64,000 bases of DNA from an uncultured Bacteroidota bacterium (GTDB taxonomy: Bacteria; Bacteroidota; Bacteroidia; Chitinophagales; Chitinophagaceae), in the NCBI GenBank assembly GCA_963757315.1, contig CAVWRD010000011.1, forward strand, positions 1,613,682 to 1,677,681, in the 5' to 3' direction. Both the position numbers and the translations under genes were made by a program. Each line of letters begins with the position of its first letter. Within the stretch, counting starts at the first letter, position 1. The notes beneath the pieces were generated by a model. It was not told the DNA's origin. It made no database searches and was given only the letters and a program-made list of their open reading frames with translations. Shown in pieces: positions 16,127 to 47,545 of this stretch.

Positions 16127-16246
16127 TGAAGATTGTTAAATGTTTATGCAGGCAAATGTAATCCTTTCCCATAACGTTCATAACTGATTGAGTCATTGCA
16201 TATACCATTATTTTAATGTAGGTTTGTGCCCGTTAATAAAGAGCTT

Positions 16247-17374: not shown

Positions 17375-17404
17375 CCTACCATATATTAAACAATAAACCT
17401 TATA

Positions 17405-19725: not shown

Positions 19726-19778
19726 GAAACATGAAACGGGATTTAATTTCTGAATCAATACCCGATATTAAAAACAAT

Positions 19779-21393: not shown

Positions 21394-21394
21394 A

Positions 21395-27754: not shown

Positions 27755-28798
27755 TTAAAACCGAGGGCATTGCACTTCAGTTCTTGTGCTCCCGTCTGTA
27801 GGTTTTTTAAAGATGTAGATCAGGGAGATTTCAAAACCACCCTGGCTTTGAGAAGCAACTTTAAACCCGGAAACATTTACGTCATAAGTCATACCTAAAT
27901 TAAAACTTCCATAGTCCATTCCAACATAAGGTATAATCGCGTCCGAAACATTATTTGCTCTGGCCCACGCACCAAAATAAATATTTACAACTTTATTTTC
28001 ATCTGTAGTGGCACTCAATTCCAAAGCGCCGCCGAACACAAGTTCACTTGCAGTAAGCTGCTTGTTATAAATAGCACTAACATACCATGTCTTACCCGTG
28101 CTCGCTGATGGGAAATAACCACCTCCATGAACCGTAAGACGTGTCGGCACTGTTATGTTATCCACTCCAAGAAAAGATTCCTTAGGTTGATTAATATGGT
28201 ACATAGCTACACCAAAATACACTTCATTGTTTCCATCGAGTGACCCATTGTACAACGCACCTGCGTTCATGTCAAAATAATTTGCTGTAACCACCTGAAG
28301 ATTTACGGGCTCTGTTGCAGATGGAAGCCAGGTTCCGTCAATTTGAAGACCATCCAGAAAATGAAGTCTCGGACCGTCAAGCGTCCGGTTGGCATAAGTG
28401 CCCTGAAACCCTATGCCTATAGTATGTAATCCATTTTCGTCAATGGTTTTATGATAAGCAGTTGATAATGCAAAATAATTGCTGGTCAATATACCGTTTG
28501 CTGTTTTATCGGTCATTGCCATCATTCCAACTCCCCAGCGATCTCCTTCGCGAAGACTATTTTGAAGTATAGGAAGATCTATAGAAATTGTAGAAGTGAC
28601 ATAAGCCTGATTAACCGTAGGCCATTGATTTCTGTAGTTTCCCGCCACGCGAAGATCTCCGTTAAATTTTCCCGTTAAAGCTGGATTTAGTGTAAGTGGT
28701 GAGGCGAAAAACTGAGAAAAATGAGGATCCTGCGCGGAGACCACGTTCGTTATTAAAACTTGTAAAATGAAAAAATGAATTATCCTTTTCATCATCAA
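27755..28798 (-). CDS. PorP/SprF-family type IX secretion outer-membrane protein
   Basis: Signal peptide followed by the family-typical QDPHFSQFFASPLTLNPALTG. 347 aa, beta-barrel-like composition. Starts 11 nt after a type-B CTD cargo gene. Confidence 0.85.
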   Translation of the reverse strand: MMMKRIIHFFILQVLITNVVSAQDPHFSQFFASPLTLNPALTGKFNGDLRVAGNYRNQWPTVNQAYVTSTISIDLPILQNSLREGDRWGVGMMAMTDKTANGILTSNYFALSTAYHKTIDENGLHTIGIGFQGTYANRTLDGPRLHFLDGLQIDGTWLPSATEPVNLQVVTANYFDMNAGALYNGSLDGNNEVYFGVAMYHINQPKESFLGVDNITVPTRLTVHGGGYFPSASTGKTWYVSAIYNKQLTASELVFGGALELSATTDENKVVNIYFGAWARANNVSDAIIPYVGMDYGSFNLGMTYDVNVSGFKVASQSQGGFEISLIYIFKKPTDGSTRTEVQCPRF

Positions 28799-28809
28799 TT
28801 CTATTGCGC

Positions 28810-31800
28810 TTATCTTACTAATTCAACGGTTCCTTTTAAAACAAAATTTTCTCCAGTAAAACAAATCATTTCAGTGACGTATACATATGTGTCTGAGGGT
28901 TGCGGCATTCCGTTCAGGTTACCATCCCAACCATATTTTTTATCATTCGGTGGAAAATCAGTTCTTGAATACAGGAGCTGCCCCCACCTTGAATAGACCT
29001 GGAATGATTTTACCATTTTTACTCCGCTGCCCGTAGGATAGAAGTAATCGTTGTTCCCATCATTATTCGGGCTGAACGCATTCGCCATATATACTCCACT
29101 TTGTAAACACAATAACTTAATGGTTACTGATGCGGATGAAACACAACCCGTAGCAGTTTTAACAGTAACAGTGTAAGTAGTAGGTGCCAAAGGTGTGCTG
29201 ACTGGCATTGCACAGTCCGTACAACTTAAATAAAGAGGTGGTGTCCAATCCCACGACACAACATCTGCACTTACATTCGGATCAAGCTGAACGTCAGAAC
29301 CTGCTAACACTGGATCGGGCGTTGGTATGCTTACGGCCGGCAACGAGTCAACGGTGACCTTAATGGTTGCTGTATCCAGAAAACATTTGTAGCTGTCTTC
29401 TCCAATGACTGTATAATTCGTAGTAGAAACAGGTCGGGCAATAACGCTATCTCCTTTGGTTGTATTCAAACTACTAGCGGGCGACCAATCATATGTAAAA
29501 GCACCGCTGGCCTGAAGTATCGCAAGTCCTCCTATACAAATTGTTGTATCCGGTGAGTGAAGCATGGGGAAGGGACCAATCACATGCACAGAATCATACG
29601 CCATCGCAGTACACCCAACAGGTGATGTCACCTGGAAAGCGGTGACAAAATCGCCAGGGGTTACATAGTTAAATGTTGGATTCAAAATATTGGAAGTATC
29701 GGTCGAGACACCGGTACCAAAGTCCCAATGATATGTAAGCGGATAACCCAAAGTATCTGCGACAAAACTTACAACATGCGGACCATAAGAAATGGAACCT
29801 ATACCACATAGTGTAACGGGTGGACCCAAAGCTGCAAACAAAGTATCCATTAGTATTTGATGGTCAGATTTGTAAGACATCTGACATCCGGTGGAATCTG
29901 TCAGAATGAGTGCCGGTGTAAATAAACCCGGCAATATATAAGTATGTACAGCTATGGAATCCTGAGTAGTTAATACAGTTCCATCTCCAAAATCCCATGT
30001 ATAAGATCCAATATAACTTGCTGTAGCATGCAGGGTGTCAGCTGCCGGAACACAGGCCTGATCCAGAGTCGAATAAAGTTTGGCAAACGGTCCCTTTACT
30101 GTAATAGTATCATAAGATATTACCGAAATGCCATTCGCTCCGTAACCCGTTAGAGACACGATATAAGTACCTGGTATATCATATTCGTATTTCGGAGTAA
30201 TCTTATTATCTGCCGTTCCCTTACCATCACCAAAATCCCAATGAAGTCCAATTGTATTTACAGGAACCGCAGTAAAATTTACAAACAAGGGTGGGCAACT
30301 GGAATTATTATAGTAATAGGATGAATCGGTAAAGGGCGCGGATATGGTTTGTATCTGTAAAGGCTGAGCCAATGTATCAATACAGGCACCTGCCATAGTT
30401 GGATAAGCAATAAGTGTCATCGTATCGTTACCAACATTCGGAAAAGTTACTGTAATCGAATCGGGATTTGTAAACGTTGCGCCACTACCCGAAATCCGCC
30501 ATAAATATGTAACTCCTGTATTTTTTACCGACGTATTGTAAAACGTAATAGGAAAACCAGGAGTAATTGCTATGGGCTTCCAATAAAAATTTGCCTTAGC
30601 TCCATATATCAATACCTGTGTAACTACGAGTTTTGCTGTGGCCTTACATCCATTGGAATCTGTTACTGTTAATTGTGGATTGTATGTTCCAGGCAGCGCA
30701 TAAAGATGCTGAACCGTATCACCTGTTAGATTTGTAACAGAATTTCCATCACCGAAATTCCACAACCAGGAAATAATTGGAACTCCATTAACTGGTTGAG
30801 AAGAATCTGAAAATATCACCGGCGCGTGATAACATAGCTGATTTTCGTCGCCAAATTTTGCAACCGGGCCAATGATATGGATTGGTATATAATTACTGGT
30901 GTCATAACATCCAAAAAAAGCAGACTTTAAAATAACACGAATACTGTCCTCACCAGCTACCAGTCCTGATACAGTTCCGGAAAAAGAAGTCTTAATAGCA
31001 GTATTACCAGTCGGGTTAAACGTTGTGCCGTCGTTATATTGCCACTTATAAATATTATAGTATGTAGTTGATCCTGTCACTTTACGCTGATAATTAGTAT
31101 CAAGTGTGTTTATGTTAATTGGAAGCGTGGAGCTTGCACAAATGGTATCTTTCGTTGAACTCAATACGGGTTTTTGATTTGCCAATACATAAACTGGAAC
31201 TGGTCCTGTAGTTTGTATACAGGATCCATAAGTAACAATCACGGAAGCAGAATAGACCCCTCCTTTTGGATAATGATGATTTTTGGTGGGTATGTAAACC
31301 AAATCCGTATCGTTCGGCGATCCGTCTCCATAACTCCATACATATTGTGATCCTCCCGAAGGAACAACGGTAAGGGCAGCACTCAACCTGTCACTATCAC
31401 AATTATTTACAACAGTTAGTTTAGGTATTGGTGTTGTTTTAACGAAGCGGGTAATCGTCGACGTGTCACTTTTACAACCCGGACTTGAAGCAATCAGCGT
31501 CATATTGTACGATCCTGAATTCTGATACAGATGCGTATGGTAAATGTTATTATTTATGTCTGATTTGCCGTCGCCGTACAACCATTTGAATTGTGCAGCG
31601 CTGTCATCGAGATTATAAAAAGTTTCCAATTGATTGGTCGTACAGGGAAGAGAATCCTGTGCGGTAAAAATCGCGTGTGGTTTTGGATAAACGATGATCG
31701 TGTCTGATGGGAATGCACCGCCCGAACATCCGTGAATGGTTGTAAAACTCAGGTTAATAATATATGTGCCTGGTTTGGAAAATACATGAATAGGACTGGC

Positions 31801-33297
31801 GCTGGTATCAGTAGTCCCATCTCCGAATGACCAGAAATAGGTAGCTAAGGTATCAGCAGATTTGGCAGTAAACGTGGCTTGAACATCAGCGCAATAAACA
31901 GCAGACGGGATTAAAATGGTGTCTGCATGAATTGTCGCAGTTGGCAACGCAGTATTAAAAGTTTCTGATATTGTTGATGAACATCCATTTGAGTTTACAA
32001 TTGTAAGCGTTGGTGAAAACGAGTTGTTTGTCAGGTACGTAAAACTTGGATTCTTTAAATCCGAAGTATCGCCTGGGTTCCCGGTAAAATTCCAATGCCA
32101 GTTTGTTGCACCCAGACTGGTATCCAAAAAATTAACAGTCATTGGTGAGGAACAACTTGTTCCCTTATTGAGTATAAAAGGACTGATATTGGGAGCAGCC
32201 AGGACATTAATAATCTTAGTAACCGAATCCGGACAAGTTCCAAAGTTTTCATACATCGTAACCGGATATGCACCCGCCGTCGCATAGCTGTGTCCGTAAG
32301 TAATTCCTATTCCACTTCCACCATCGCCAAATGTCCATATGGGAACCCCGGTAGGTGCGGGTGTACTTTTATTTATAAAAATAATTGTGTTGCCCGGGCA
32401 GTATGCGGAATTTGTAGTGAAATCAGCACTAAAATTTGCGGCATTGATATAAGCGGGTTTTGTAACGGTAGATGAACATCCATAAGTATTCGATACAACC
32501 AGACTAATATCATAATTCCCTTTTGCAGCATAAAGATGTGTCGGGTTTGTAAGAGTACTTGAATCGTTGTCGCCAAATGACCAGGAATAACTTAAAGCAC
32601 CTGCGCCAGTTGAAGTGTTATGAAAAAGAACAGGCTGATTTAAACTACAAATAGCAGTAGTGTCGACAAAAAATGAGGGACTAAGAGCAGGATATACGGT
32701 AACCATATCCTGAATCTTATAAGTATTGATACAACCAAAACTATTAGTTGCCGTAAGACTAACCGAATAAGTTCCGGGAAACTGGTAGATATTAGAAACA
32801 GAACCAACCGTGGTGCTTTGTGAATTACCATCACCAAAATTCCAAATAGCTCCGGTAATGGTACCATCACCTGCGCTTAGTGAACTTGAAAAATCAACTA
32901 ACAATGGTGAACATCCTACGGTATGATCCGCTGAAAAATTTATTGCAGGTTTTTTGTAGACGGTTATATCCTTGGAAATTGTCGCGGTCTTTCCACCATC
33001 ACTTATCGTCAACGTTACTGTGTAGATTTGTCCGACAAAGTAGGTAGCAGAAACGGGATTATTTTTAACGTTGGTTGTGATACCATTTCCATTACCAAAA
33101 ATCCAGGTGTAAGTAGAAGTGGCGCTTGTTCCAGTAGATGTATTTACAAAACTCACCGTTAATGGCGAACAGCCCGAATTAACACTTGGTGTAAAGTCAG
33201 CCGTCAGTTGCGCCATCACCGGATCGATACCTGCCAACAAAAAAATAATTGCCAGCAGATAGCCTGATCTTCTACCTGAATTATTCCTCAGGGGCAT
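28810..33297 (-). CDS. large PKD-repeat surface protein with T9SS type-B (gliding-motility-associated) C-terminal sorting domain
   Basis: About 14 repeats carrying WxFGDG-type PKD motifs (AIWNFGDGNS, YFWSFGDGTT, LHWDFGDGKG ...). C-terminal NAFSPNNDGNNDYFYP motif of type-B CTDs. N-terminal signal peptide. Confidence 0.88.
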   Translation of the reverse strand: MPLRNNSGRRSGYLLAIIFLLAGIDPVMAQLTADFTPSVNSGCSPLTVSFVNTSTGTSATSTYTWIFGNGNGITTNVKNNPVSATYFVGQIYTVTLTISDGGKTATISKDITVYKKPAINFSADHTVGCSPLLVDFSSSLSAGDGTITGAIWNFGDGNSQSTTVGSVSNIYQFPGTYSVSLTATNSFGCINTYKIQDMVTVYPALSPSFFVDTTAICSLNQPVLFHNTSTGAGALSYSWSFGDNDSSTLTNPTHLYAAKGNYDISLVVSNTYGCSSTVTKPAYINAANFSADFTTNSAYCPGNTIIFINKSTPAPTGVPIWTFGDGGSGIGITYGHSYATAGAYPVTMYENFGTCPDSVTKIINVLAAPNISPFILNKGTSCSSPMTVNFLDTSLGATNWHWNFTGNPGDTSDLKNPSFTYLTNNSFSPTLTIVNSNGCSSTISETFNTALPTATIHADTILIPSAVYCADVQATFTAKSADTLATYFWSFGDGTTDTSASPIHVFSKPGTYIINLSFTTIHGCSGGAFPSDTIIVYPKPHAIFTAQDSLPCTTNQLETFYNLDDSAAQFKWLYGDGKSDINNNIYHTHLYQNSGSYNMTLIASSPGCKSDTSTITRFVKTTPIPKLTVVNNCDSDRLSAALTVVPSGGSQYVWSYGDGSPNDTDLVYIPTKNHHYPKGGVYSASVIVTYGSCIQTTGPVPVYVLANQKPVLSSTKDTICASSTLPININTLDTNYQRKVTGSTTYYNIYKWQYNDGTTFNPTGNTAIKTSFSGTVSGLVAGEDSIRVILKSAFFGCYDTSNYIPIHIIGPVAKFGDENQLCYHAPVIFSDSSQPVNGVPIISWLWNFGDGNSVTNLTGDTVQHLYALPGTYNPQLTVTDSNGCKATAKLVVTQVLIYGAKANFYWKPIAITPGFPITFYNTSVKNTGVTYLWRISGSGATFTNPDSITVTFPNVGNDTMTLIAYPTMAGACIDTLAQPLQIQTISAPFTDSSYYYNNSSCPPLFVNFTAVPVNTIGLHWDFGDGKGTADNKITPKYEYDIPGTYIVSLTGYGANGISVISYDTITVKGPFAKLYSTLDQACVPAADTLHATASYIGSYTWDFGDGTVLTTQDSIAVHTYILPGLFTPALILTDSTGCQMSYKSDHQILMDTLFAALGPPVTLCGIGSISYGPHVVSFVADTLGYPLTYHWDFGTGVSTDTSNILNPTFNYVTPGDFVTAFQVTSPVGCTAMAYDSVHVIGPFPMLHSPDTTICIGGLAILQASGAFTYDWSPASSLNTTKGDSVIARPVSTTNYTVIGEDSYKCFLDTATIKVTVDSLPAVSIPTPDPVLAGSDVQLDPNVSADVVSWDWTPPLYLSCTDCAMPVSTPLAPTTYTVTVKTATGCVSSASVTIKLLCLQSGVYMANAFSPNNDGNNDYFYPTGSGVKMVKSFQVYSRWGQLLYSRTDFPPNDKKYGWDGNLNGMPQPSDTYVYVTEMICFTGENFVLKGTVELVR

Positions 33298-33586: not shown

Positions 33587-33592
33587 TTCTTG

Positions 33593-33663
33593 TTGCCCGA
33601 CGAGGATTCGAACCTCGACAAACAGAATCAAAATCTGTCGTACTGCCATTATACTATCGGGCA
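33593..33663 (-). tRNA. tRNA-Gln (anticodon UUG)
   Basis: Acceptor TGCCCGA/TCGGGCA, anticodon arm ACAGA-TTTTGAT-TCTGT, T-arm CGAGG-TTCGAAT-CCTCG. Confidence 0.9.
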
Positions 33664-33734: not shown

Positions 33735-35009
33735 TTATTTCGCCTCCACCAGGTAGAAATTTTTTTTACCTTTTTGAACGAGTATATATTTCTCATACAA
33801 AAGCATTTCATTTCCTATATTAAACTGAATATTTTCAACGCGATTTCTATTGATGCTGATTCCTCCATTTTGAATCAGTTTCCTCGCTTCCCCTTTGCTG
33901 GGCAAAATACCCGTTTCCGCCAGAAACCTCACGACGTCCACACCCTGGTTGATTTCGCTTTTTGCGTAAGTTGATTTTATAATTCCCTCAAGGGAGAGCA
34001 AATCCTGTTCACTTAGATTTTCCTGTGAGTTCGTCTGACTAAATAATTTCTCCGTAGTCAAGATTACTTTTTCATATTCCACTTGTCCGTGAATGAAAAT
34101 TGTAACCTCTTTTGCAAGGGCTTTTTGCAATAATCTGTCACCCCGATTTTGATAGTGCCTAACTGACAGTAAATCAACTTCCTCCCGGCTTAAAAATGTA
34201 AAAATCTTAACCCATTTTTCAGCATCCTCGTCTGATGCATTCAACCAGAATTGATAAAATTGATACGGCGATGTTCGCGAAGCATCCAACCAGATATTTC
34301 CTTTCTCTGTTTTGCCAAATTTTCCTCCGTCCGATCTTGTTAACAGCGGACAGGTAAATGCAAATGCTTCACCCCCCGATTTCCGACGAATTAATTCGGC
34401 TCCGGTTGTGATATTTCCCCACTGGTCACTCCCTCCCATTTGAAGTTTACAATTCCGGTTTTTATAAAGCCAATAAAAATCATATCCCTGTACCAGCTGA
34501 TATGTGAACTCCGTAAAACTCATGCCCGAAGTGCCTTCCAGTCTTTTTTTCACGCTGTCTTTGGCCGACATGTAATTGACTGTAATATGTTTCCCCACGT
34601 CTCTTATAAAATCCAGAAAATGCATTTCTTTGAACCAATCGTAATTATTTACCAGTTCAGCTGCATTCGGCTTTATTTGATCAAAATCAAGAAATTTTTC
34701 GAGTTGTTTGCGAATGCTCTTCAAATTGTGATTCAAAGTCTCTTCGTCCAACAGGTTTCTTTCTTCAGATTTGCCGCTCGGATCTCCTACCATACCAGTT
34801 GCACCTCCCAATAACACAAAGGGTTTATGCCCCGCTTTTTGCATATGAACCAGCAGTAAAATAGGAACAAGACTGCCAATATGCAGGCTATCCGCTGTGG
34901 GATCAAAACCAATATAGCCGGAGGTCATTTCAGAAGAAAGCTGTTCCTCCGTACCGGGGATAATATCCTGAAGCATACCCCGCCATTTTAATTCGGTGAC
35001 TAGCGACAT
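33735..35009 (-). CDS. tyrS: tyrosine--tRNA ligase
   Basis: HIGH-type motif (SLHIGSL), KMSKS-type motif (KFGKTE), C-terminal S4-like domain. 424 aa. Confidence 0.93.
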   Translation of the reverse strand: MSLVTELKWRGMLQDIIPGTEEQLSSEMTSGYIGFDPTADSLHIGSLVPILLLVHMQKAGHKPFVLLGGATGMVGDPSGKSEERNLLDEETLNHNLKSIRKQLEKFLDFDQIKPNAAELVNNYDWFKEMHFLDFIRDVGKHITVNYMSAKDSVKKRLEGTSGMSFTEFTYQLVQGYDFYWLYKNRNCKLQMGGSDQWGNITTGAELIRRKSGGEAFAFTCPLLTRSDGGKFGKTEKGNIWLDASRTSPYQFYQFWLNASDEDAEKWVKIFTFLSREEVDLLSVRHYQNRGDRLLQKALAKEVTIFIHGQVEYEKVILTTEKLFSQTNSQENLSEQDLLSLEGIIKSTYAKSEINQGVDVVRFLAETGILPSKGEARKLIQNGGISINRNRVENIQFNIGNEMLLYEKYILVQKGKKNFYLVEAK

Positions 35010-35100: not shown

Positions 35101-36246
35101 ATGGTATCGACTTCAGTAACCCGAAGAATCAGAACCTGCTGCCCCCTACTACTGCTGTTGCTGATACTTTTTTGCAACCGTTCATTGGGCCAGTTTGCCA
35201 AATATTCCAATGAATTTTTAAATATCGGCGCTGGCGCCCGCGGAATGGCCATGGGAAATGCTCAGGTAGCTTCGGTTACCGACGGCACTGGTGGTTATTG
35301 GAACCCTGCCGCTCTGGCTGATATAAGAACCAGCCCTCAACTTAATATTATGCACGCCGAATACTTCGCGGGCATAGGAAAATACGATTTTGCAAGCCTG
35401 GCGCTTCCACTCAAAGACAGTAAACGTACCCTAGGTCTCACATTATTACGGTTTGCCGTAGACGATATACCAAATACAGTATTTCTCGTGCAACCCGATG
35501 GTAGCATAGATTTTAGCAATATCACTACGTTTTCTTCAGCAGATTATGCTTTCCTGATTTCTTTGGCTCAACAGGTAGACTGGATAAAAAACACGAAAAC
35601 TAATTTCGGAATAAATGCCAAAATTATACATCGTCTGGCAGGAGATTTCACTACTTCCTGGGGATTTGGTTTTGATGCGGCCATCCAGATTGTCGGTGAC
35701 CGTTGGAAACTCGGTATTGTCGCGAAGGATGTGACAACCACTTTCAACGCGTGGTCGTATAATATAAGTCAGGATTGGAGAGAAGTGTTTTATGCCACAT
35801 CAAATGACATTCCATCCAATTCAGTTGAATTGACAGCGCCTCAGTTGATACCCGGATTCAGTTATAATTTCCCGATCAATAAGAAAATAAGTATACTCGC
35901 TGAAGCAGATTTTGATATCACGTTTGATGGAAAAAGAAATACAATCGTCAGTTCAAATCCCATCAGCATAGATCCTAAAATGGGACTTGAACTATCTTAT
36001 AATAATGCATTTTTTGTAAGAGCCGGCATAAACAATTTTCAGCAAACACTGGACGACAGGGACACGACTAATCAAAGGAAAATCTGGATTTATCAACCGT
36101 CCATCGGAGCTGGTTTTAAAGTGGGAGATGTTGAAGTGGATTATGCTTTTACGAATCTGGCCAATCAGTCAAACCCATTATATACAAATGTGTTTTCGTT
36201 AAAAGTTGATTTGGTGGATATGAAAAAGAAAACGGTCAAGAAATAA
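35101..36246 (+). CDS. PorV-family outer-membrane beta-barrel protein (PorV2-like T9SS shuttle candidate)
   Basis: Signal peptide. N-terminal FLNIGAGARGMAMGNAQVASVTDGTGGYWNPAALA, the PorV/LptO-type signature. Alternating beta-strand composition. 381 aa. Confidence 0.72.
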   Translation: MVSTSVTRRIRTCCPLLLLLLILFCNRSLGQFAKYSNEFLNIGAGARGMAMGNAQVASVTDGTGGYWNPAALADIRTSPQLNIMHAEYFAGIGKYDFASLALPLKDSKRTLGLTLLRFAVDDIPNTVFLVQPDGSIDFSNITTFSSADYAFLISLAQQVDWIKNTKTNFGINAKIIHRLAGDFTTSWGFGFDAAIQIVGDRWKLGIVAKDVTTTFNAWSYNISQDWREVFYATSNDIPSNSVELTAPQLIPGFSYNFPINKKISILAEADFDITFDGKRNTIVSSNPISIDPKMGLELSYNNAFFVRAGINNFQQTLDDRDTTNQRKIWIYQPSIGAGFKVGDVEVDYAFTNLANQSNPLYTNVFSLKVDLVDMKKKTVKK

Positions 36247-36272
36247 TCCGCTGCCGAAAAACTAAACTGATT

Positions 36273-39200
36273 ATGAATAGATTTTTTACATTGATATTAA
36301 TCCTGATTGCGGGAACTGCCGTTGCTCAGCCCTACAATAACGAGTGGATTGACTACAGTAAGACATACTATAAATTCAAGGTCACTTCGGATGGTCTTTA
36401 CAGAATCCCTGCTTCCGTACTGTCATCCGCAGGACTTTCTTCTGTAGATGCAAAAGATTTTCAACTTTTCCGTAATGGAGTAGAGGTACCGTTATATACT
36501 TCAGTTAGTAGTGGCCCTCTGTCTCCAACAGATTATATCGAATTCTGGGGACAAATGAACGATGGGAAAGCTGATAAACCTCTTTACAGAAATCCGGCAT
36601 ACCAGCACACCACCAAATGGAGTCTTCAATCAGATACATCTGTTTATTTTCTGACGGTCAATACTACAGGTGCTACTTTTCATTATAATACGCTTAACAA
36701 CGACACAACTACTAATGTGTTGCCCGTTGAACCTTACTTCATGTACACAACTGGATCTTATTTCCATTCCCAAATTAACCCGGGACTCGCATACGTTCTT
36801 GAGCAATACATTTATTCTTCTTCTTACGATATAGGTGAATTCTGGAGTTCAGATTTTTCATCACCAGGGGCACCTGTATCTGATAACCAGAATAATCTTT
36901 ATATATATAATAGCGGACCTTCCGCCAATTTGAAATTTGGTGCTGCAGGCTGTTCAGACACCCTTCGAACAATCCAGGTTAAAGTAAATAATACTCTTTT
37001 TAAGGATACTACTCTGAACAATTTCGATGACATTGTTAGTAACGTTACAGTGCCACTCTCCTCCTTAAACACCAGCTCTTCTAATTTTCAATTTATAAAT
37101 AATTCGCAGGCAATCACCTATTCAGACCGATTGGTTGTATCATTCTATGAACTTACATATCCCAGGCAATTTAATTTTAACGGACAACCTAATTTTCCGT
37201 TTCAGTTGCCGGCTAATGTCGGTGGATATTATTTAAAGATCACCAATTTTAATCAGGGCAGTTCCATTCCTGTACTTTATGACCAGACAACAGGTCAGCG
37301 CTTCGTCGCAATTTCAAACGCCGGAACCCTGACCTTTGCTCTTCCGGGATCTGCATCATCGAGAAACCTGGTGTTGGTCAGTGAGGATCCATCGAACATT
37401 AACACTATTAATTCTTTGACAAAAAAGAATTTCATATCATATGCAGATCCGTTAAATCAGGGCAATTATCTTATAGTCACAAATTCGGTACTTTATACAG
37501 GCACACACGGGAATAATCCCATCGCAGATTATGTGGGATATCGTTCTTCTACTGCAGGTGGTGCTTTTAATGCACAATCGATGGACATCGCAGAGCTCAC
37601 CGATCAGTTTGCGTTCGGAATTCAGAAACACCCGCTTGCAATAAAGAACTTCATAAACTATGCGAGAAATAATTATGGGCAAAAGCCAGCATTTATATTC
37701 CTGATAGGTCGCGGAATGACTTATATGGAATATCGGCAGAATCAGGGGAATCCTGCTACCGAACAGCTCAACCTTGTACCTACTTTCGGATATCCGGCGT
37801 CTGATGTGATGCTTGCGTCGGGGAATGGATCCGGAAGTGTTAACCTGATTCCCATTGGCCGTTTAGGAGCCGTTAAAGGTTCCGAAGTGGAAGACTATCT
37901 TGAAAAAATTATAGCATATGAACAGGTGCAACAAACAGCCGCAAATACTTTTGCAGGAAGAGGATGGCGTAAGAATATCATGCATGTTACCGGTGCCACA
38001 GATCCGTTCCTTGAAAGTGTGCTGTGTAATTATATGGTGTACTATCAGCAGATAATTTCCGATACCCTGTTTGGCGCAAATGTAATTCGGTTCTGCAGTT
38101 CTACAATTGACCAGAATAATCAGGCTTCCAATGCTCAGATTCCCCAGCTATTTGATAATGGTTTGGGTATTCTTGATTATTTTGGACACTCCTCCTCTTC
38201 TACATTAGGTTTTAATCTGGACGATCCAAGTATATTCACTAATCAATCAAAATATCCGGTTATGTACGTGAACGGATGTTATGCAGGAAATTATTACACA
38301 TTTGACCCAGGTCGTCTGACAAATGGAAAAACATTATCTGAGAACTATGTACTCATAAAAAATAAAGGTGCCATTGCATACGTGGCGAGTTCTCATTTTG
38401 GTGTAGTAAATTATTTGAATCTGTTATTGAATTATATGTACACACTGATGGGAAACAGTGATTATGGCAAAAGCATCGGAACGATTGAGTCTGATGCGGG
38501 AAGAAATTTGATAACACAACTTCCCACGGATTTTATTGCCCGGTGTCAAACGGAAGAAATGAATATTCACGGAGATCCGTCATTGACAGTTAGTGACGAG
38601 AAATTACCCGATTACGATGTTGAAGCTTCAGGTGTATTAGTGACTCCAACGTTTATTTCGGTTGCAGATCGCAGTTTTAACCTGAGCGCAACTTTTTATA
38701 ATCTGGGAAAAGCTGTTTCCGATTCGATTACAATACTTATTACCAGAAGATATCCGAATGGCAGCACTACTACAATGCTGAAGAAAAGAATTCCAGGTAT
38801 AAGATTTTCTGATTCCCTGCAAATCCAGGTACCCATAGTTGCAACGACAGATGAGGGCCAAAACTATATTACCGTAACTGTTAACTCAGACAACGATGTC
38901 CCCGAAATAACAACGGCTAACAATTCCGTAACGGTTCCGATATTCATTTATCAGGATGAGCTCACACCGATTTACCCTTATAATTACGCGATTATTACTA
39001 CACCGGTTCAAAAACTATATGCATCTACAGCTAATCCATTTGCGCCTATTACGCAATATATAATGGAAATAGATACAACAGAGGCCTTCAATTCTCCCAG
39101 AATGGTATCAAAAAATATCACGTCGGTAGGCGGAGTGTTTGAATTTGATCCCGGCATAAGATATGCGGATAGCACAGTCTATTATTGGAGAACTTCCATT

Positions 39201-41336
39201 GTTCCGGCTCAAAATGCGGCTTATCACTGGAATGAATTTTCATTTATCTATATTGATTCAATAAAAAGTACGGTCGGTTTCAACCAGTCCCATTATTATC
39301 AACAACTGCAGTCTACGGGTAACGGAATGAGTCTATCAGCGGACCGGAATTGGCATTTTGGTCAGCATACCGGAAATCTCTATATCAGTCAGGCTATTTA
39401 TCCAACCAGTGGTTTAAATGATGCGGACTTCTCAGTTTTAGTAAATGGTGGCGGAAATATTGCGAGTGCATGTGTCGGTCAATCCCTGATATACAATATT
39501 TTCGACTCTGCTACTTTTTTACCATGGTTAAATGTGGGTCCATCCGGAAACAATCTGTTCCGTTTTGGAAGCGGAAGTGCAAATTGCAAAACCAGCTCAC
39601 ATTATAACTTCGAATTCTCTTATACAACCGCTGCCAGCCGAAAACTTATGATGGATTTGATGGATTCGATTCCAATTGGGGATTATGTTGTTGTGAGAAG
39701 TATCGATTATAACAACAATCTTTCTTACGCAGCAACATGGGAAGCAGATACAGCATTGTATGGACACCAGAAATCGTTATATCATTACCTGCTTGCTGCG
39801 GGTTTTACATTAATTGATTCAATAAATCAGCCCCGATGCTGGACTCTTGTTTATAAAAAAGGAAACAACGGATATACTCCTGTATTTAAATATTCCCAGG
39901 GAATCTTTGATAAAATTATTCTGTCTACAGATGTACCCTTACCAAACCTTTCTGCAAATATGGTTTCACCTCTATTTGGCCCTGCAAAACAATGGAAACA
40001 GGTACATTGGAGAGGTCATAGTCTGGAATCTCCTTCAACCGACAGTTTGGGTGTACAGGTTCTGGGTGTGGACACTTCGGGCAATCAAAGTGTTCTATAC
40101 AATCTCAATTCAGCAACTCAGGATTTCGATATTTCTTCAGTTAACGTTCAGCAATTTCCGTTCATCCAATTAAAACTAACGACCACAGACTCAGTACATG
40201 CTACGCCATTCCAATTAAATTATTGGAGACTCAATTACGTTCCTGTTCCCGAAGGAGCGATTGCACCTAATATATATCTTACTGGTAAGGATTCTGTTGA
40301 GTTGGGTGAAGTAATACAATTTGGGGTAGCATTCAAAAACGTCAGTTTGTCTTCGTTTGACAGCCTGAAAATTTCATTCAAGATCATCGATAAAAATAAT
40401 GTTACACATATAATACCTTATCCAAATACAAAACCATTGATTTCGGGAGACACAGTAAGAATTGTTTATCAGATAGACAGCAAACTTTATCCGGGATTAA
40501 ATACAATTAATGTGGAAGTAAACCCGGGAAATGCTCAACCAGAACAATACCATTTCAACAATTTTCTCTTTAAGAATTTCTATGTTAAAGTAGATATGCT
40601 TAATCCACTACTGGATGTGACTTTTGATAATGTGCATATTCTAAATGAAGATATCGTTTCGGCAAAACCACATATTTTTATAAAATTAAAAGACGAATCC
40701 CAATTCCTACTTCTTAAAGACACTTCGGTCATAAAAGTCCAATTGCGATATCCGGATGGGTCAATGCATCCCTACTATTTCAACTCAGACACACTTAAAT
40801 TTACACCGGCAACGAGTAGTGCTGATAATACGGCCAGCGTGGAATTCAATCCGGTTTTCACAACTCAGATAAATCCCCAGGGTGATGACTATACTCTAAT
40901 TGTTACAGGAACAGACAATAGTGGAAATCCTTCGGGATCCATTCCATACCAGGTGACCTTTAAAATCATCACGAAAGCCATGATTTCGAACATGCTGAAT
41001 TATCCGAATCCTTTTACCACATCCACAGCTTTTGTATTCACCATAACAGGAAGCGATGTTCCGCAAAATATTAAAATCCAGATTCTAACGATTACCGGAA
41101 AGGTAGTTCGGGAAATTACAAAAGAGGAACTGGGACCTTTACATGTAGGTCAGAATATTACTGAATTCAAATGGGATGGAACTGACATGTATCACGCGCG
41201 GCTGGCAAATGGAGTTTATCTCTATCATGTAGTTACAAATCTTAATGGTAAATCTCTCGATAAGTATACTTCTCAAAGCGATAACACGGACCAATACTTC
41301 AATAAAGGCTATGGAAAAATGTATTTGATGAAATGA
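36273..41336 (+). CDS. PorU-like clan-CD (C25/gingipain-type) peptidase, putative T9SS sortase paralog, with C-terminal type-A-like CTD
   Basis: Strand-His GILDYFGH (His639, cac 38187..38189) and strand-Cys PVMYVNGC (Cys669, tgt 38277..38279), 30 residues apart. C-terminus NYPNPFTTSTAFVFTI...GVYLYHVV. Signal peptide. 1687 aa. Confidence 0.72.
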   Translation: MNRFFTLILILIAGTAVAQPYNNEWIDYSKTYYKFKVTSDGLYRIPASVLSSAGLSSVDAKDFQLFRNGVEVPLYTSVSSGPLSPTDYIEFWGQMNDGKADKPLYRNPAYQHTTKWSLQSDTSVYFLTVNTTGATFHYNTLNNDTTTNVLPVEPYFMYTTGSYFHSQINPGLAYVLEQYIYSSSYDIGEFWSSDFSSPGAPVSDNQNNLYIYNSGPSANLKFGAAGCSDTLRTIQVKVNNTLFKDTTLNNFDDIVSNVTVPLSSLNTSSSNFQFINNSQAITYSDRLVVSFYELTYPRQFNFNGQPNFPFQLPANVGGYYLKITNFNQGSSIPVLYDQTTGQRFVAISNAGTLTFALPGSASSRNLVLVSEDPSNINTINSLTKKNFISYADPLNQGNYLIVTNSVLYTGTHGNNPIADYVGYRSSTAGGAFNAQSMDIAELTDQFAFGIQKHPLAIKNFINYARNNYGQKPAFIFLIGRGMTYMEYRQNQGNPATEQLNLVPTFGYPASDVMLASGNGSGSVNLIPIGRLGAVKGSEVEDYLEKIIAYEQVQQTAANTFAGRGWRKNIMHVTGATDPFLESVLCNYMVYYQQIISDTLFGANVIRFCSSTIDQNNQASNAQIPQLFDNGLGILDYFGHSSSSTLGFNLDDPSIFTNQSKYPVMYVNGCYAGNYYTFDPGRLTNGKTLSENYVLIKNKGAIAYVASSHFGVVNYLNLLLNYMYTLMGNSDYGKSIGTIESDAGRNLITQLPTDFIARCQTEEMNIHGDPSLTVSDEKLPDYDVEASGVLVTPTFISVADRSFNLSATFYNLGKAVSDSITILITRRYPNGSTTTMLKKRIPGIRFSDSLQIQVPIVATTDEGQNYITVTVNSDNDVPEITTANNSVTVPIFIYQDELTPIYPYNYAIITTPVQKLYASTANPFAPITQYIMEIDTTEAFNSPRMVSKNITSVGGVFEFDPGIRYADSTVYYWRTSIVPAQNAAYHWNEFSFIYIDSIKSTVGFNQSHYYQQLQSTGNGMSLSADRNWHFGQHTGNLYISQAIYPTSGLNDADFSVLVNGGGNIASACVGQSLIYNIFDSATFLPWLNVGPSGNNLFRFGSGSANCKTSSHYNFEFSYTTAASRKLMMDLMDSIPIGDYVVVRSIDYNNNLSYAATWEADTALYGHQKSLYHYLLAAGFTLIDSINQPRCWTLVYKKGNNGYTPVFKYSQGIFDKIILSTDVPLPNLSANMVSPLFGPAKQWKQVHWRGHSLESPSTDSLGVQVLGVDTSGNQSVLYNLNSATQDFDISSVNVQQFPFIQLKLTTTDSVHATPFQLNYWRLNYVPVPEGAIAPNIYLTGKDSVELGEVIQFGVAFKNVSLSSFDSLKISFKIIDKNNVTHIIPYPNTKPLISGDTVRIVYQIDSKLYPGLNTINVEVNPGNAQPEQYHFNNFLFKNFYVKVDMLNPLLDVTFDNVHILNEDIVSAKPHIFIKLKDESQFLLLKDTSVIKVQLRYPDGSMHPYYFNSDTLKFTPATSSADNTASVEFNPVFTTQINPQGDDYTLIVTGTDNSGNPSGSIPYQVTFKIITKAMISNMLNYPNPFTTSTAFVFTITGSDVPQNIKIQILTITGKVVREITKEELGPLHVGQNITEFKWDGTDMYHARLANGVYLYHVVTNLNGKSLDKYTSQSDNTDQYFNKGYGKMYLMK

Positions 41337-42883
41337 CCTTAAAACAATCAGGTAATTCAGATTCAGGTTTTTCTATCAGGAAACATCTGTTTCTATTATA
41401 TTTATTTGTCGTCACTGCATTTTTTATTTACGCGCCGGTACTTCATCATTTTTTTGTATCTGACGATTTTAAAGTATTGTATAGAGTTACCGGAGAGAGG
41501 ATTATTTTTATTCATGGCTTCTTCAGGCCGCTTTCAGATATTTCCATATTAATAACCTTCCTTGCAGGTGGTTTAAATCCTGTGTGGTTTAATTCATTTA
41601 ATATCCTGATTCATGGGATAAACAGCTTCCTCCTGTTTCGCCTCTCCATTCAAATAGGCCGCAATATTCAGGATAAGTCAAATGCATTTTATTTCGCAAT
41701 ATTATCTTCCGTTTTTTTTATTTGTTATCCATTTCACAATGAAGCTGTGGTCTGGATATTGGGTAGAGGATCAGGAATGGCCTGCATGTTTGCACTTTCC
41801 GGACTTCTTTGCTACTATGAAATAAAAAAAAATAACCTGAAAATCGCGGCATCCTGTTTCTGTTATTTCATGAGTATGACTGCGTTTGAATCAGCCATGA
41901 TTTTTCCTCTGTTATTGTGGCTTTTACTTTTACTGGAAAAACAGAATTCCAAGAATATACGCAATTGGATTTTCGCGCTGACATTTACATTTTGCCTTCA
42001 TTTAATATGCAGATATTTATTATCAGGGGCATTTTTTGGCTCTTACGGAAATGATTTTTTTCACACCAGTTTTAAAAAATATTTCCTGAATATAGCAAAA
42101 ACCGGAGGTCGGTTAATTTTGCCGCCATCAAATAATACTGTCCTGTTGGTATCGGTTTTCATTCTTTTGACTTTGTACGCGTTTTATTATATAATAAAAC
42201 ATATACATCAAATTAGGCAAAACAAAATCTGGAGAACTATAGCAATTTTGTCTTTAATGCTTGTTATTTCCTGCGTAGTACCGTTAGTCGCAGGAGTTAA
42301 CACCCGGACGTCTGAATCTGACAGGCTGTTATATTTTCCCTCGGTTTTTGTATGTATGATTTGGGCATTCCTGATCGTTTTTAACGTCGGTAATAAGAAC
42401 CTTCAACGTTTGTTGATTTTTTCCACTGTTGCTTACAATCTTTTTTTCCTGGAATTAAATAATTTGAACTGGAGAAAAGCATCATCAGTTACTTCGTCGA
42501 TACTTGAAAAGGTAAATGCAGAAACCCATTCAGGAAATTCAGGTCGAATATATTTCTTGAATATTCCGGATGAAATTGATGGAGCCTATGTCTTAAGAAT
42601 GGGATTTTCGGATGCAATGAAATTATATGGATTTGATTTAAACCGTTTTGTCGATGTAAATTATTTGCAGCGAAGTGAAATGAGTGAAATAAAACATGAA
42701 ATAATACTGAATGCAGATAAAACCGAAATTTCTTTACCGCCGGATATTATAATAAAAAGAATGCCCGTAGGAAACTACCAAATCTTCGACCATGGAAAAT
42801 TAAAATTTACGAGTAGCACGAATGATAAGATATATTTTTGGAATGGCAGTCAACTGGAACTATTTCGACCTTCTTTTGAGTAA
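41333..42883 (+). CDS. polytopic membrane protein, GT-C fold glycosyltransferase-like (PMT_2/TMTC-like signature)
   Basis: ATGA overlap with the upstream gene. TM1 is followed by FFVSDDF (Asp44-Asp45, gac gat 41462..41467). FRPLSDIS...GGLNPVWFNSFNILIHGINSFLLF resembles the first-loop signature of PMT_2/TMTC-type GT-C enzymes. About 10+ TM segments plus a ~130-aa soluble C-terminus. Confidence 0.55.
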   Translation: MTLKQSGNSDSGFSIRKHLFLLYLFVVTAFFIYAPVLHHFFVSDDFKVLYRVTGERIIFIHGFFRPLSDISILITFLAGGLNPVWFNSFNILIHGINSFLLFRLSIQIGRNIQDKSNAFYFAILSSVFFICYPFHNEAVVWILGRGSGMACMFALSGLLCYYEIKKNNLKIAASCFCYFMSMTAFESAMIFPLLLWLLLLLEKQNSKNIRNWIFALTFTFCLHLICRYLLSGAFFGSYGNDFFHTSFKKYFLNIAKTGGRLILPPSNNTVLLVSVFILLTLYAFYYIIKHIHQIRQNKIWRTIAILSLMLVISCVVPLVAGVNTRTSESDRLLYFPSVFVCMIWAFLIVFNVGNKNLQRLLIFSTVAYNLFFLELNNLNWRKASSVTSSILEKVNAETHSGNSGRIYFLNIPDEIDGAYVLRMGFSDAMKLYGFDLNRFVDVNYLQRSEMSEIKHEIILNADKTEISLPPDIIIKRMPVGNYQIFDHGKLKFTSSTNDKIYFWNGSQLELFRPSFE

Positions 42884-43488
42884 ATACCATGATTACCTGA
42901 ATCAGTTGTACGCATCATCCGTTCAACATATTTACCAATAAGATCAAACTCAATGTTCACGAAAGATCCTTCTTCGAGATCCCGAATATTCGTGTTTTCG
43001 AAAGTATAGGGAATAATGGCCAGGGAAAATTCTTTATCGGTCACTTCAAAGCAGGTCAGGCTGATTCCATTAACAGCCACAGACCCTTTTTCAATAATCA
43101 GGCTCTTATATATTTCCGGGAATTCGAACCGAAAAACCCAGCTTCCCTTTTTATTTTGACGAGATATACATTTTGCAGTTGTATCTACATGTCCCTGAAC
43201 CATATGACCATCGAGTCGGCCGTTTAATTTGACGCATCGTTCCAAGTTTACCTTGTTGCCTGGTTTCCAATGAGATAAACAGGTTTTTGAAAGAGTTTCA
43301 GCAACGGCTGTCACCTGGTAGAAACTTTCAGAAACTGATTCCACAGTCAAACAGACCCCGTCGTGGGAAACACTCTGATCAATACCCAACTCATGGGTTA
43401 TTGGTGATGCAATCTTAAAGATTTTGTTTGTTCCCTCTGCTGAAACTGTAGAAATATTACCAATTGCTTCTATTATACCGGTGAACAT
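42850..43488 (-). CDS. ribE: riboflavin synthase alpha chain
   Basis: MFTGIIE start and duplicated lumazine-binding repeats (GDSIAVNG-like GSVAVNGISLT). Confidence 0.9.
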   Translation of the reverse strand: MFTGIIEAIGNISTVSAEGTNKIFKIASPITHELGIDQSVSHDGVCLTVESVSESFYQVTAVAETLSKTCLSHWKPGNKVNLERCVKLNGRLDGHMVQGHVDTTAKCISRQNKKGSWVFRFEFPEIYKSLIIEKGSVAVNGISLTCFEVTDKEFSLAIIPYTFENTNIRDLEEGSFVNIEFDLIGKYVERMMRTTDSGNHGIYSKEGRNSSS

Positions 43489-45428: not shown

Positions 45429-45501
45429 GCCTGAGTAGCTCAGTTGGTAGAGCAGCTGATTTGTAATCAGCAGGTCGCGGGTTCGATCCCCCTCTCAGGC
45501 T
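45429..45501 (+). tRNA. tRNA-Thr (anticodon UGU)
   Basis: Acceptor GCCTGAG/CTCAGGC. D-arm GCTC-AGTTGGTA-GAGC. Anticodon arm GCTGA-TTTGTAA-TCAGC. The T-stem has one C:C mismatch by my hand fold. Confidence 0.85.
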
Positions 45502-45564
45502 CACTGACAAGAAAGGCGGATTGAAATTTTGAAACGTGTTTTTGCAGGCTGGCAGAAACCATTC

Positions 45565-45647
45565 GGGCAAGTAGTCAAGTGGCCAACGACAACAGACTGT
45601 AAATCTGTTCTCTTCGGAGTTCGGTGGTTCGAATCCATCCTTGCCCA
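45565..45647 (+). tRNA. tRNA-Tyr (anticodon GUA), long variable arm
   Basis: Acceptor GGGCAAG/CTTGCCC. Anticodon arm ACAGA-CTGTAAA-TCTGT. Variable arm TCTCTTCGGAGTTC. T-arm GGTGG-TTCGAAT-CCATC. Confidence 0.9.
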
Positions 45648-45816
45648 CTATCCCGCTGAAGGCGGAAAGTATGGAAGTGTGAGGGTGAGAGAATGTGAGG
45701 GCGCATTTCCAGTTATTGTTAATAGTTCTTTGAGTTGATTATATGAAAATGTGAAGTGTAAAAAATGTATCTCTTTCTCACACTCTCACACTTCCATACT
45801 TTCATACTTGTATCAT

Positions 45817-45889
45817 GCGGAAGTAGCTCAGTTGGTAGAGCGACAGCCTTCCAAGCTGTAGGTCGCGGGTTCGAACCTCGTCTTCCGCT
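45817..45889 (+). tRNA. tRNA-Gly (anticodon UCC)
   Basis: Acceptor GCGGAAG/CTTCCGC. Anticodon loop CTTCCAA. Confidence 0.9.
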
Positions 45890-45981
45890 CTCACCTCCCG
45901 GATCCCGCAGATCCTGGAGAAGGCAGATATTCATATATGGTGGAATCCTTATGTGGAGATATCTGTAGCTATAGCGTTAAT

Positions 45982-46053
<72 letters not shown>

Positions 46054-46148
46054 CATATCGACAGAGTGGTTGAACGGAAAAATGGAAAGCAGATTTAAAG
46101 AAAATAGAATCACAATTATTTAAAAACACAATTAAAAACTAGATACCA

Positions 46149-47440: not shown

Positions 47441-47512
47441 ACGGGAATAGTTCAACGGTTAGAATAGAGGTCTCCAAAACCTTTGATCAGGGTTCGAATC
47501 CTTGTTCCCGTG
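47441..47512 (+). tRNA. tRNA-Trp (anticodon CCA)
   Basis: Acceptor ACGGGAA/TTCCCGT. Anticodon arm GAGGT-CTCCAAA-ACCTT. T-arm CAGGG-TTCGAAT-CCTTG. Confidence 0.9.
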
Positions 47513-47545
47513 CGAAGACAATTTTCAAATTTTCAAATAACACAA

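Follow-up and report, generated by a model that had tools for sequence, protein, structure and literature searches.

A stretch of 64,000 nucleotides (hereafter the window) from contig CAVWRD010000011.1 of an uncultured soil Chitinophagaceae bacterium carries three co-directional genes, which encode a PorV/PorQ-family outer-membrane protein (PorV2), a PorU-related cysteine peptidase (PorU2) and a polytopic membrane protein (gene 3). The main finding is that porV2-porU2 is a paralogous surface-processing module belonging to the T9SS (type IX secretion system), conserved across Chitinophagaceae, distinct from the canonical PorU/PorV and always paired within its usual setting; the families, the catalytic dyad and the pairing are firmly established. 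Equally firm is the finding that the slot downstream of porU2 forms a hot-spot of genes typically involved in tailoring surface glycans in the periplasm, and that gene 3 represents a new family with the glycosyltransferase C (GT-C) fold, which is found almost only behind the PorV2-PorU2 pair. Based on these results, it may be proposed, tentatively and at slightly less than an even chance, that the pair is a second T9SS surface sortase module, beside which a fast-turnover island tailors its acceptor glycan. The three genes are as follows.

35101-36246, forward strand: gene 1, porV2, an open reading frame (ORF) of 381 amino acids (aa), PorV/PorQ-family outer-membrane protein.
36273-41336, forward strand: gene 2, porU2, an ORF of 1687 aa, PorU-related C25 cysteine peptidase, putative sortase, probably with a C-terminal domain (CTD) of its own.
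41333-42883, forward strand: gene 3, an ORF of 516 aa, unclassified polytopic GT-C-fold membrane protein, putative glycosyltransferase.

A preliminary description of this DNA had reported three tightly packed genes, and the exact ORFs agree with it. Read from the sequence, the junction of genes 1 and 2 consists of a TAA stop, a 26-nt gap and an ATG, and genes 2 and 3 meet in an ATGA, in which the gene-3 start overlaps the porU2 stop. All of the motifs quoted in that description were found, namely FLNIGAGARGMAMGNAQVA...YWNPAALA in gene 1, GILDYFGH and PVMYVNGC in gene 2, and FFVSDDF and GGLNPVWFNSFNILIHGINSFLLF in gene 3. Since each of the three has hundreds of homologues, they are real genes and not chance ORFs. 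A scan of 34.8-43.7 kb for sigma-70 promoters and terminators gave counts no better than those in shuffled sequence, the consensus being unsuited to Bacteroidota.

The PorV-type assignment of gene 1 is borne out by the profile searches. Its product, whose N-terminus bears the signal-like segment MVSTSVTRRIRTCCPLLLLLLILFCNRSLGQ, matches the NCBIfam model NF052325 (PorVQ2, 'putative type IX sorting system protein PorV2') with 520.2 bits, well above the cut-off of 325, over residues 19-371 and model positions 9-353 of 354, and it belongs to the PorV/PorQ family. The score against the PorV_fam superfamily model is 89.8 bits at a cut-off of 90, and the protein lies below the canonical models for PorV (NF033710, 40.4 versus 250) and PorQ (NF033711, 57.1 versus 220); no Pfam match was found for gene 1. 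For the comparison of gene neighborhoods, 80 genome loci were retrieved as best hits of a PorU2 profile, and their ORFs were then searched. porV2 is located directly upstream of PorU2 in 75 of the 76 loci with upstream sequence, the sole true exception being locus L049, described below.

Gene 2 is a PorU-like peptidase of clan CD, as had been proposed: it contains a full-length Peptidase_C25 domain and scores 854.6 bits with NCBIfam NF052324 ('putative type IX secretion system sortase PorU2'), for which the cut-off is 450, with residues 4-884 aligned on model positions 2-879 of 879. With the canonical PorU model NF033707 (T9SS_sortase), the score is 142 bits at a cut-off of 420. Judged by these profiles, gene 2 is related to PorU, but is not a member of the canonical PorU family. 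The suspicion that PorV2-PorU2 differs from canonical PorU/PorV thus proved correct for both partners (142 against 420 for PorU, 40 against 250 for PorV). No canonical porU/porV pair is present within the 64-kb window. Homologues of PorU, PorV, PorQ and PorZ have been reported in the class Chitinophagia, with paralogues not separated (PMC7323717). The domains of PorU2 are the following.

37467-38588, forward strand: Peptidase_C25 catalytic domain, residues 399-772 (Pfam PF01364, E 3.6e-47, model 1-373 of 374).
38667-38933, forward strand: CARDB-like beta-sandwich domain, residues 799-887 (Pfam PF07705, 23.4 bits, cut-off 22.7).
38934-40940, forward strand: PorU2-specific middle region, residues 888-1556, with several beta-sandwich domains and one alpha/beta subdomain.
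40941-41333, forward strand: probable T9SS CTD of PorU2, residues 1557-1687, resembling the CTD of Porphyromonas gingivalis PorU.

In the catalytic domain, His639 (GILDYFGH, codon 38187-38189) and Cys669 (PVMYVNGC, codon 38277-38279) are 30 residues apart, and both are invariant among 20 homologues of 42-60% identity. When the 20-sequence profile of gene 2 was compared with the PDB, the gingipain RgpB (1cvr_A) was found, with His639 placed on His211 and Cys669 on Cys244. The His/Cys dyad read earlier from the letters is therefore confirmed by invariance and by alignment, and the 33-residue spacing given there for RgpB is correct. At the other end of the protein, the C-terminal 100 residues match the PorU CTD (6za2_A residues 1039-1141) with an E value of 3e-5, and the generic models remain sub-threshold (TIGR04183, 20.9 bits at a cut-off of 23; FlgD_ig, 25.5 at 27). 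The claim that gene 2 has a CTD of its own is thus only partly confirmed.

Gene 2 is indeed longer than P. gingivalis PorU, the 6za2_A chain of which has 1156 residues, in line with the length of about 1150 aa given previously. The label 'giant', on the other hand, is misleading, since approximately 1690 aa is ordinary for the PorU2 family (median ORF length of 1696 aa, stop to stop, in 81 loci). An AlphaFold model of residues 880-1687 is confident for 895-1430, and the last 250 residues are poorly modelled because most of the aligned homologues are truncated. Foldseek searches with this model returned generic multi-Ig/MG-domain matches (complement C5, alpha-2-macroglobulin, transglutaminase) at a TM-score of approximately 0.1. 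A fusion of PorU with PorZ was considered as the source of the extra 530 residues and was rejected, since Foldseek revealed no beta-propeller in the 880-1687 model.

Compared with the PorU-PorV system of P. gingivalis (with PorZ-PorQ), the pair described here is similar in that a C25 enzyme with a probable retained-type CTD of its own is encoded beside a PorV/PorQ-family barrel, and in that the His/Cys dyad is conserved; PorU itself uses a lipopolysaccharide (LPS)-borne glycan as acceptor. In P. gingivalis, too, porU and porV are neighbouring genes. The differences are that PorU2 scores below the cut-off of the PorU model and PorV2 below those of the PorV and PorQ models, that PorU2 is approximately 530 residues longer, with extra beta-sandwich domains and no PorZ-like propeller found, and that PorV2-PorU2 borders on a variable island of GT-C genes and genes for glycan modification. 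No such island is known from the porU locus of P. gingivalis. With RgpB (MEROPS C25, clan CD), PorU2 shares the family of the catalytic domain and a comparable dyad spacing (30 residues versus 33), but the profile match reaches only an E value of about 1e-3 and the domain architecture differs; RgpB acts as a hydrolase and is itself T9SS cargo that loses its CTD.

Several PorU2 loci depart from the usual form. In locus L074:3731-15115, two PorU2-like genes surround one PorV2 gene (PorU2'-PorV2-PorU2), and the first copy (1645 aa) is markedly divergent, with 1073 versus 1649 bits to the window protein. In L049:7305-20021 (Paraflavitalea sp. CAU 1676), PorU2 is located outside the usual synteny and without PorV2; 4 nt after it begins an 814-aa TonB-dependent-receptor-like barrel with a CarboxypepD_reg domain, which may be an alternative partner of PorU2. 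In addition, the record QFQQ01000006.1 (L079), labelled 'MAG: Citrobacter freundii', has a typical Chitinophagaceae tyrS-porV2-porU2-ribE-xer locus, and it is probably mislabelled or comes from a contaminated bin.

The superposition of the related loci reveals a conserved Chitinophagaceae synteny, tyrS / porV2-porU2 / slot / ribE-xerC, with tyrS at the same position in 67 related loci and the slot closed by ribE in 28 loci, followed by xerC/D in 24. The two borders in the window are as follows.

33735-35009, reverse strand: tyrS, divergent, left border of the module (TIGR00234, 394 bits).
42850-43488, reverse strand: ribE (riboflavin synthase), convergent, right border of the slot (NF006767, 222 bits).

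In the window, ribE overlaps the end of gene 3 by 34 nt and is followed downstream by xerC/D, a tRNA cluster, tuf, nusG and rpoB. The trio as a conserved unit, as first suggested, did not hold: gene 3 is present in only 19 of the 57 informative PorU2 loci (directly after PorU2 in 12, the window included, and 1-7 kb downstream in 7) and is missing from the closest relatives. The conserved unit is instead the PorV2-PorU2 pair with a variable downstream slot. Its recurrent polytopic occupants are gene 3, LIC_10190-family, YfhO-like, GT22/PMT_2-like and DUF6056 proteins. Also recurrent are a family 2 glycosyltransferase (GT2) of 250 aa, whose best matches are polyprenyl-phosphate sugar synthases (AglJ, ArnC, PpgS), and a second GT2. 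Other occupants are Acyl_transf_3 (AT3) and GDSL/SGNH proteins, a carbamoyltransferase with small SxtJ-like companions, methyltransferases, a GFO/IDH/MocA oxidoreductase and a radical-SAM/SPASM protein. Such genes represent the three-part logic of Gtr/Arn systems, O-acylation by AT3/SGNH proteins, carbamoylation and methylation.

The association of these genes with porU2 is one-sided. Among the 42 loci with full flanks, the 7.7 kb downstream of porU2 include one or more GT-C-like polytopic genes in 32, whereas the same span upstream of porV2 does so in a single locus; two more loci contain another unannotated protein with 10-13 transmembrane (TM) helices beside a methyltransferase. Six distant gene-3 homologues (31-38% identity) were looked at one by one, and each is preceded, on its own strand, by a C25 gene upstream. 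Similarly, a metagenome scan placed PorU2 upstream on the same strand in 34 of 37 gene-3 loci with at least 8 kb of upstream sequence, and gene 3 is directly adjacent to PorU2 in 31 of the 55 metagenome loci showing both. ORF offsets matching an ATGA-type overlap were observed in several other loci. Gene 3 diverges far faster than PorU2: at 79% PorU2 identity the gene-3 proteins share 51%, and at 77% they share 33%, which is the pattern known from serotype-type glycan enzymes. The non-syntenic PorU2 of L049 is also found among glycosyltransferases, with a GT2 gene upstream and a GT1/GT28 gene downstream.

The composition of the slot varies considerably. In L081, L083, L084, L086, L105 and L111, a long co-directional array stands between porU2 and gene 3, consisting in order of a GDSL/SGNH gene, a carbamoyltransferase gene, a 49-aa ORF, a 118-126-aa SxtJ-like ORF and a 407-469-aa unknown or DUF6056-like polytopic protein, after which come gene 3 and a radical-SAM/SPASM protein; the 'operon' in these genomes is much longer than the three genes of the window. 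A Hsp70/DnaK-family gene of approximately 620 aa, encoded on the strand of porU2, was seen in 13 loci in all, in 6 of which it comes first after porU2; L021, L022, L024, L050, L058, L066, L068 and L089 are among the loci concerned. L170:8500-11470 contains a tandem pair of gene-3 paralogues (with 31% and 40% identity to the best-matching gene-3 homologues in the reference loci) upstream of GT2-ribE-xer, with no PorU2 within 9.9 kb. L152, L168 and L160-L163 contain gene-3 relatives of approximately 31-36% identity in a different conserved neighborhood, from which PorU2 and ribE are absent and in which an approximately 490-aa gene on the opposite strand lies just upstream and an approximately 335-aa gene downstream; no PDB sequence match was found for these neighbours.

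Gene 3 has no match in Pfam or NCBIfam, nor among PDB sequences by phmmer, and a 39-sequence profile run against the PDB also gave nothing meaningful. An AlphaFold model built from the family alignment (pLDDT 86.9, pTM 0.88) contains approximately 11-13 helices and a small beta-rich C-terminal domain. When this model was compared with the PDB by Foldseek, hits 1-19 were all GT-C enzymes (STT3, ArnT, PglB, AftD, AglB, DPY19, Pmt1/Pmt2 and AftA), followed by unrelated membrane proteins. These hits are modest (probability 0.99-1.00, E 3e-4 to 4e-2, TM-score 0.31-0.45), and the GT-C assignment is therefore at the level of the fold only. On the evidence of the model, gene 3 is predicted to have the GT-C fold and is a putative glycosyltransferase. 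Two of its features are of particular concern here.

41462-41467, forward strand: Asp44-Asp45, an acidic pair that may be catalytic or bind metal, in the first loop predicted to be periplasmic, just past the first transmembrane helix (TM1).
42530-42880, forward strand: C-terminal beta-rich soluble domain, residues 400-516, predicted to be periplasmic, from the secondary structure of the model.

The Asp44-Asp45 pair lies approximately 10 residues past the helix formed by residues 15-32 in the AlphaFold model and is invariant in 39 homologues with 31-79% identity to the window protein. An acidic pair directly after TM1 is a hallmark of the ArnT/PglB/PMT group. Also invariant in these 39 sequences are R65, P66, D69, H94, H135, E137, R145, E186, R227 and R260, together with T326, S327, E328, D330 and R331 of the loop TSExDR at 326-331. 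The C-terminal domain is absent from some family members, in which the profile matches end near 430-445. With a GC content of 0.344, gene 3 is the lowest of its neighborhood (window 0.402).

The preliminary description had placed gene 3 among the GT-C enzymes of the PMT_2/TMTC type; the GT-C part of this claim is supported by Foldseek, but the PMT_2/TMTC part is not. Hidden Markov model (HMM) searches gave no match to PMT_2 (PF13231), PMT, DUF1736 or STT3 in any of the 39 members at E<=1, no TPR repeats or MIR domains were found in gene 3, and its sequence does not contain the WWDxG motif. Among the Pfam families, EpsG and GtrII come nearest, with weak matches in both cases. EpsG (PF14897) matches 5 of the 39 members over profile positions 51-310 of 326, P0100 alone passing the gathering cut-off (31.7 bits versus 30.1), and the window protein itself has no match. 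Of 10 more distant members, 3 match GtrII (Glucos_trans_II, PF14264) across almost the whole profile, with 13.5-18 bits at a cut-off of 30, which is suggestive only. An exhaustive HMMER search gave approximately 950 representatives at E<=1e-30 and approximately 59,000 at E<=1e-3, which makes the gene-3 family a distinct branch of a very large superfamily. The automatic JGI names of the homologues are 'protein O-mannosyl-transferase' in approximately 20 cases and 'hypothetical' in others. When gene 3 was aligned by hhalign with the other polytopic families of the slot (LIC_10190, YfhO-like, GT22/PMT_2-like, DUF6056, c53, c31, c78 and c96), the probabilities were at most 10%, and by these comparisons common ancestry is neither shown nor excluded.

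Among known systems, gene 3 may be compared with the GtrABC/ArnT type, in which a GT-C enzyme works with a GT2 polyprenyl-phosphate sugar synthase. The points in common are the GT-C fold with an acidic motif after TM1, the weak GtrII/EpsG matches of family members, the fast divergence as in serotype-converting enzymes, and the ArnC/AglJ/PpgS-like GT2, AT3, SGNH, methyl- and carbamoyltransferases in the slots of the sister loci. The differences are that gene 3 is without HMM membership, that the window contains no GtrA/GtrB partner, and that gene 3 is almost always behind a T9SS sortase-like gene and not in a prophage or LPS locus. With PMT_2/TMTC enzymes, gene 3 has in common a polytopic architecture of the GT-C type, a loop-1 motif of the Asp-Asp/Asp-Glu kind and a segment in TM2 like '(F/Y)(H/N)xxNxLxHxxN', a resemblance pointed out in the preliminary description; on the other hand, its 39 members lack any PMT_2, PMT or DUF1736 match and TPR/MIR domains, and Pmt1 and Pmt2 rank only 14th and 19th among the fold hits and align in part.

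By analogy with PorU-PorV and PorZ-PorQ, a working model may be drawn in which PorU2 would be exported through the T9SS by its own CTD and held at the cell surface by the PorV/PorQ-like barrel PorV2; the His639/Cys669 dyad would then cleave the C-terminal signal of cargo proteins and join the cargo to an amine of a glycolipid at the surface. Sortase activity of a PorU2 anchored by PorV2 may thus be supposed on the precedent of these pairs (PMC4560394, PMC8545088), and in P. gingivalis PorU joins its cargo to O-LPS through a dedicated linker saccharide (PMC13086638, PMC4560394). Gene 3 would be located in the inner membrane, like ArnT or GtrC-type O-antigen glucosyltransferases, where its Asp44-Asp45 loop would serve to add a sugar, taken over from polyprenyl phosphate as carrier, to a glycan at the periplasmic side. 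We infer a polyprenyl-phosphate sugar donor on circumstantial grounds, the ArnC/AglJ/PpgS-like GT2 in the same slot of sister loci. Gene 3 would be one interchangeable occupant of the fast-turnover slot between porU2 and ribE, and the island would tailor the acceptor of PorU2, a surface glycan (LPS O-chain or linker), so that the chemistry of anchoring would vary between strains. Any functional coupling of gene 3 with PorU2, and the supposed identity of the island glycan with the PorU2 acceptor, are likewise read from gene neighborhood. A sortase step linked to glycosyl transfer, as proposed in the preliminary description, is from this neighborhood a reasonable inference, stronger for the island as a whole and weaker for gene 3 itself.

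A number of observations weigh against this proposal. Gene 3 is absent from the closest relatives of the window locus (L001, L003 and L004, with 76-81% PorU2 identity), and a few gene-3 relatives occur without PorU2 (L152, L168, L160-163, L170). The slot also contains unrelated genes, among them Hsp70 and an M1 peptidase with a CTD, and many slot genes are on the opposite strand. All of the sampled loci belong to one family with conserved synteny, so the counts are not phylogenetically independent and the adjacency could be an inherited position. No polyprenyl-phosphate sugar synthase adjoins gene 3 in the window, and the matches to the GT-C fold are weak (E of about 3e-4, TM-score 0.36-0.45). 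The anchor pathway of P. gingivalis is not known to need a Gtr/ArnT-type enzyme. Finally, literature searches for 'PorU2' and 'PorV2' returned only artefacts of superscript reference numbers or unrelated uses, and those for PorU paralogues or for GT-C enzymes in the T9SS found nothing relevant.

The main rival explanation, which we consider rather unlikely, is a syntenic coincidence: the gap between porU2 and ribE would be a recombination hot-spot, the slot genes would modify O-antigen or exopolysaccharide for reasons unrelated to the T9SS, such as evasion of phages or predators, and PorV2 and PorU2 would work independently of them. The complete turnover of slot content between close relatives, the opposite orientation of many slot genes, the housekeeping character of Hsp70, the low GC content of gene 3 relative to its neighbours, the single synteny inherited by all loci and the gene-3 relatives without PorU2 are all in accordance with such a coincidence. 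However, gene 3 overlaps or tightly abuts the porU2 stop on the same strand in dozens of loci, the enrichment of GT-C-like genes is confined to the downstream side (32 versus 1 of 42 loci), the non-syntenic PorU2 of L049 again has glycosyltransferase neighbours, and an LPS glycan serves as substrate for the only PorU that has been characterised (PMC13086638). A different doubt concerns PorU2 itself, which could be an ordinary T9SS-secreted surface protease, a gingipain-like hydrolase for which PorV2 is a mere anchor or shuttle. The C25 family includes true proteases, sequence does not tell hydrolysis from transpeptidation, and PorU2 is far below the PorU equivalog cut-off; yet its N-terminal 880 residues align along PorU model positions 4-733, beyond the C25 core, its gene is paired with that of a PorV/PorQ-family barrel as porU is with porV, and the NCBI curators class gene 2 as a putative sortase. 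An ordinary protease is, accordingly, a distinctly unlikely reading.

For gene 3, two other functions have to be weighed against that of a single-sugar transferase acting on a surface glycan. It could be a protein glycosyltransferase of the PMT/TMTC or oligosaccharyltransferase type, acting in the periplasm before export on T9SS cargo, on CTDs or on PorU2/PorV2. Such a role is plausible because the cargo CTDs of Cytophaga hutchinsonii are reported to be N-glycosylated in the periplasm, with no transferase named by the reviewers (PMC11611037), and it would agree with the JGI name carried by approximately 20 homologues, with the presence of STT3, PglB, AglB, DPY19 and Pmt1/2 among the fold hits, and with the resemblance in the TM2 motif. 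It is nevertheless improbable, since the HMM, TPR/MIR and WWDxG signatures of PMT and STT3 enzymes are missing; moreover, the weak sequence matches are to EpsG and GtrII, which act on polysaccharides, and the slot partners (AT3, SGNH, carbamoyltransferase and GtrB-like GT2) are typical of polysaccharide decoration. Least probable of all is that gene 3 is a Wzy/EpsG-like polysaccharide polymerase or ligase. The EpsG matches in 5 of 39 members, with P0100 above the cut-off, point in this direction, but the window protein is not among them, the fold neighbours are of the ArnT, STT3 and PglB types, the 50 best fold hits including neither an O-antigen ligase nor a polymerase, and the invariant acidic pair after TM1 fits the ArnT/PglB/PMT group.

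The surroundings of the module in the window are those of an organism that clearly uses the T9SS, because they encode a T9SS cargo protein with a type-B CTD and a PorP/SprF-family protein. The former is a 1495-aa PKD-repeat protein, which adjoins the PorP/SprF-family gene (the two at 27755-33297, reverse strand), the usual pairing of cargo and anchor for type-B cargo; a homologue of this large protein lies approximately 13 kb upstream of the porU2 stop in 8 related loci. Approximately 13 kb upstream of the trio, at 14840-22048, there is a cluster for LPS and nucleotide-sugar synthesis with a Kdo transferase (14840-16126, reverse strand), a DegT/PseC-type aminotransferase, UDP-glucose 6-dehydrogenase, a NAD-dependent epimerase/dehydratase and dTDP-glucose 4,6-dehydratase, which may feed the same surface glycan. 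Also present are a 927-aa protein that combines TPR repeats with a CHAT (caspase-like) domain at its C-terminus (23872-26655, reverse strand) and, after its gene, a 294-aa ORF at 26722-27606 with no family match. The tRNA genes (Gln at 33592-33663; Thr, Tyr, Gly and Thr at 45429-46054, upstream of tuf; Trp at 47441-47513, between tuf and nusG) are in an ordinary conserved bacterial synteny. The closest named relatives of the window sequence are Puia spp. of the Chitinophagaceae.

The names PorU2 and PorV2 already exist as database labels, as the preliminary description suggested (the 'putative' NCBIfam models NF052324 and NF052325), while the gene-3 family is without a Pfam or NCBIfam model and the link of the PorU2 module with a variable GT-C/glycan-modification island appears unreported. 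To our knowledge, the fixation of T9SS cargo is understood only in Porphyromonas and its close relatives, where one sortase (PorU) acts on one LPS-borne linker. The CTD proteins that environmental Bacteroidota secrete number in the hundreds, glycan-degrading enzymes and adhesins among them. The three-gene 'operon' of the window is one of many configurations, not a fixed unit. If the link with the island is only positional, the results would still provide an annotation for the gene-3 family and a hot-spot of glycan diversity at a fixed chromosomal address in Chitinophagaceae. If the coupling is true, it would offer a handle on alternative anchoring chemistries, a possible explanation of strain-specific surface display and the first functional context for this GT-C family. 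The boldest form of the proposal, which we regard as doubtful, is that tailoring enzymes in the periplasm diversify the acceptor glycan of a dedicated sortase from strain to strain, with gene 3 founding a new GT-C family; if so, the chemistry of protein anchoring, besides the structure of the O-antigen, would be under diversifying selection.

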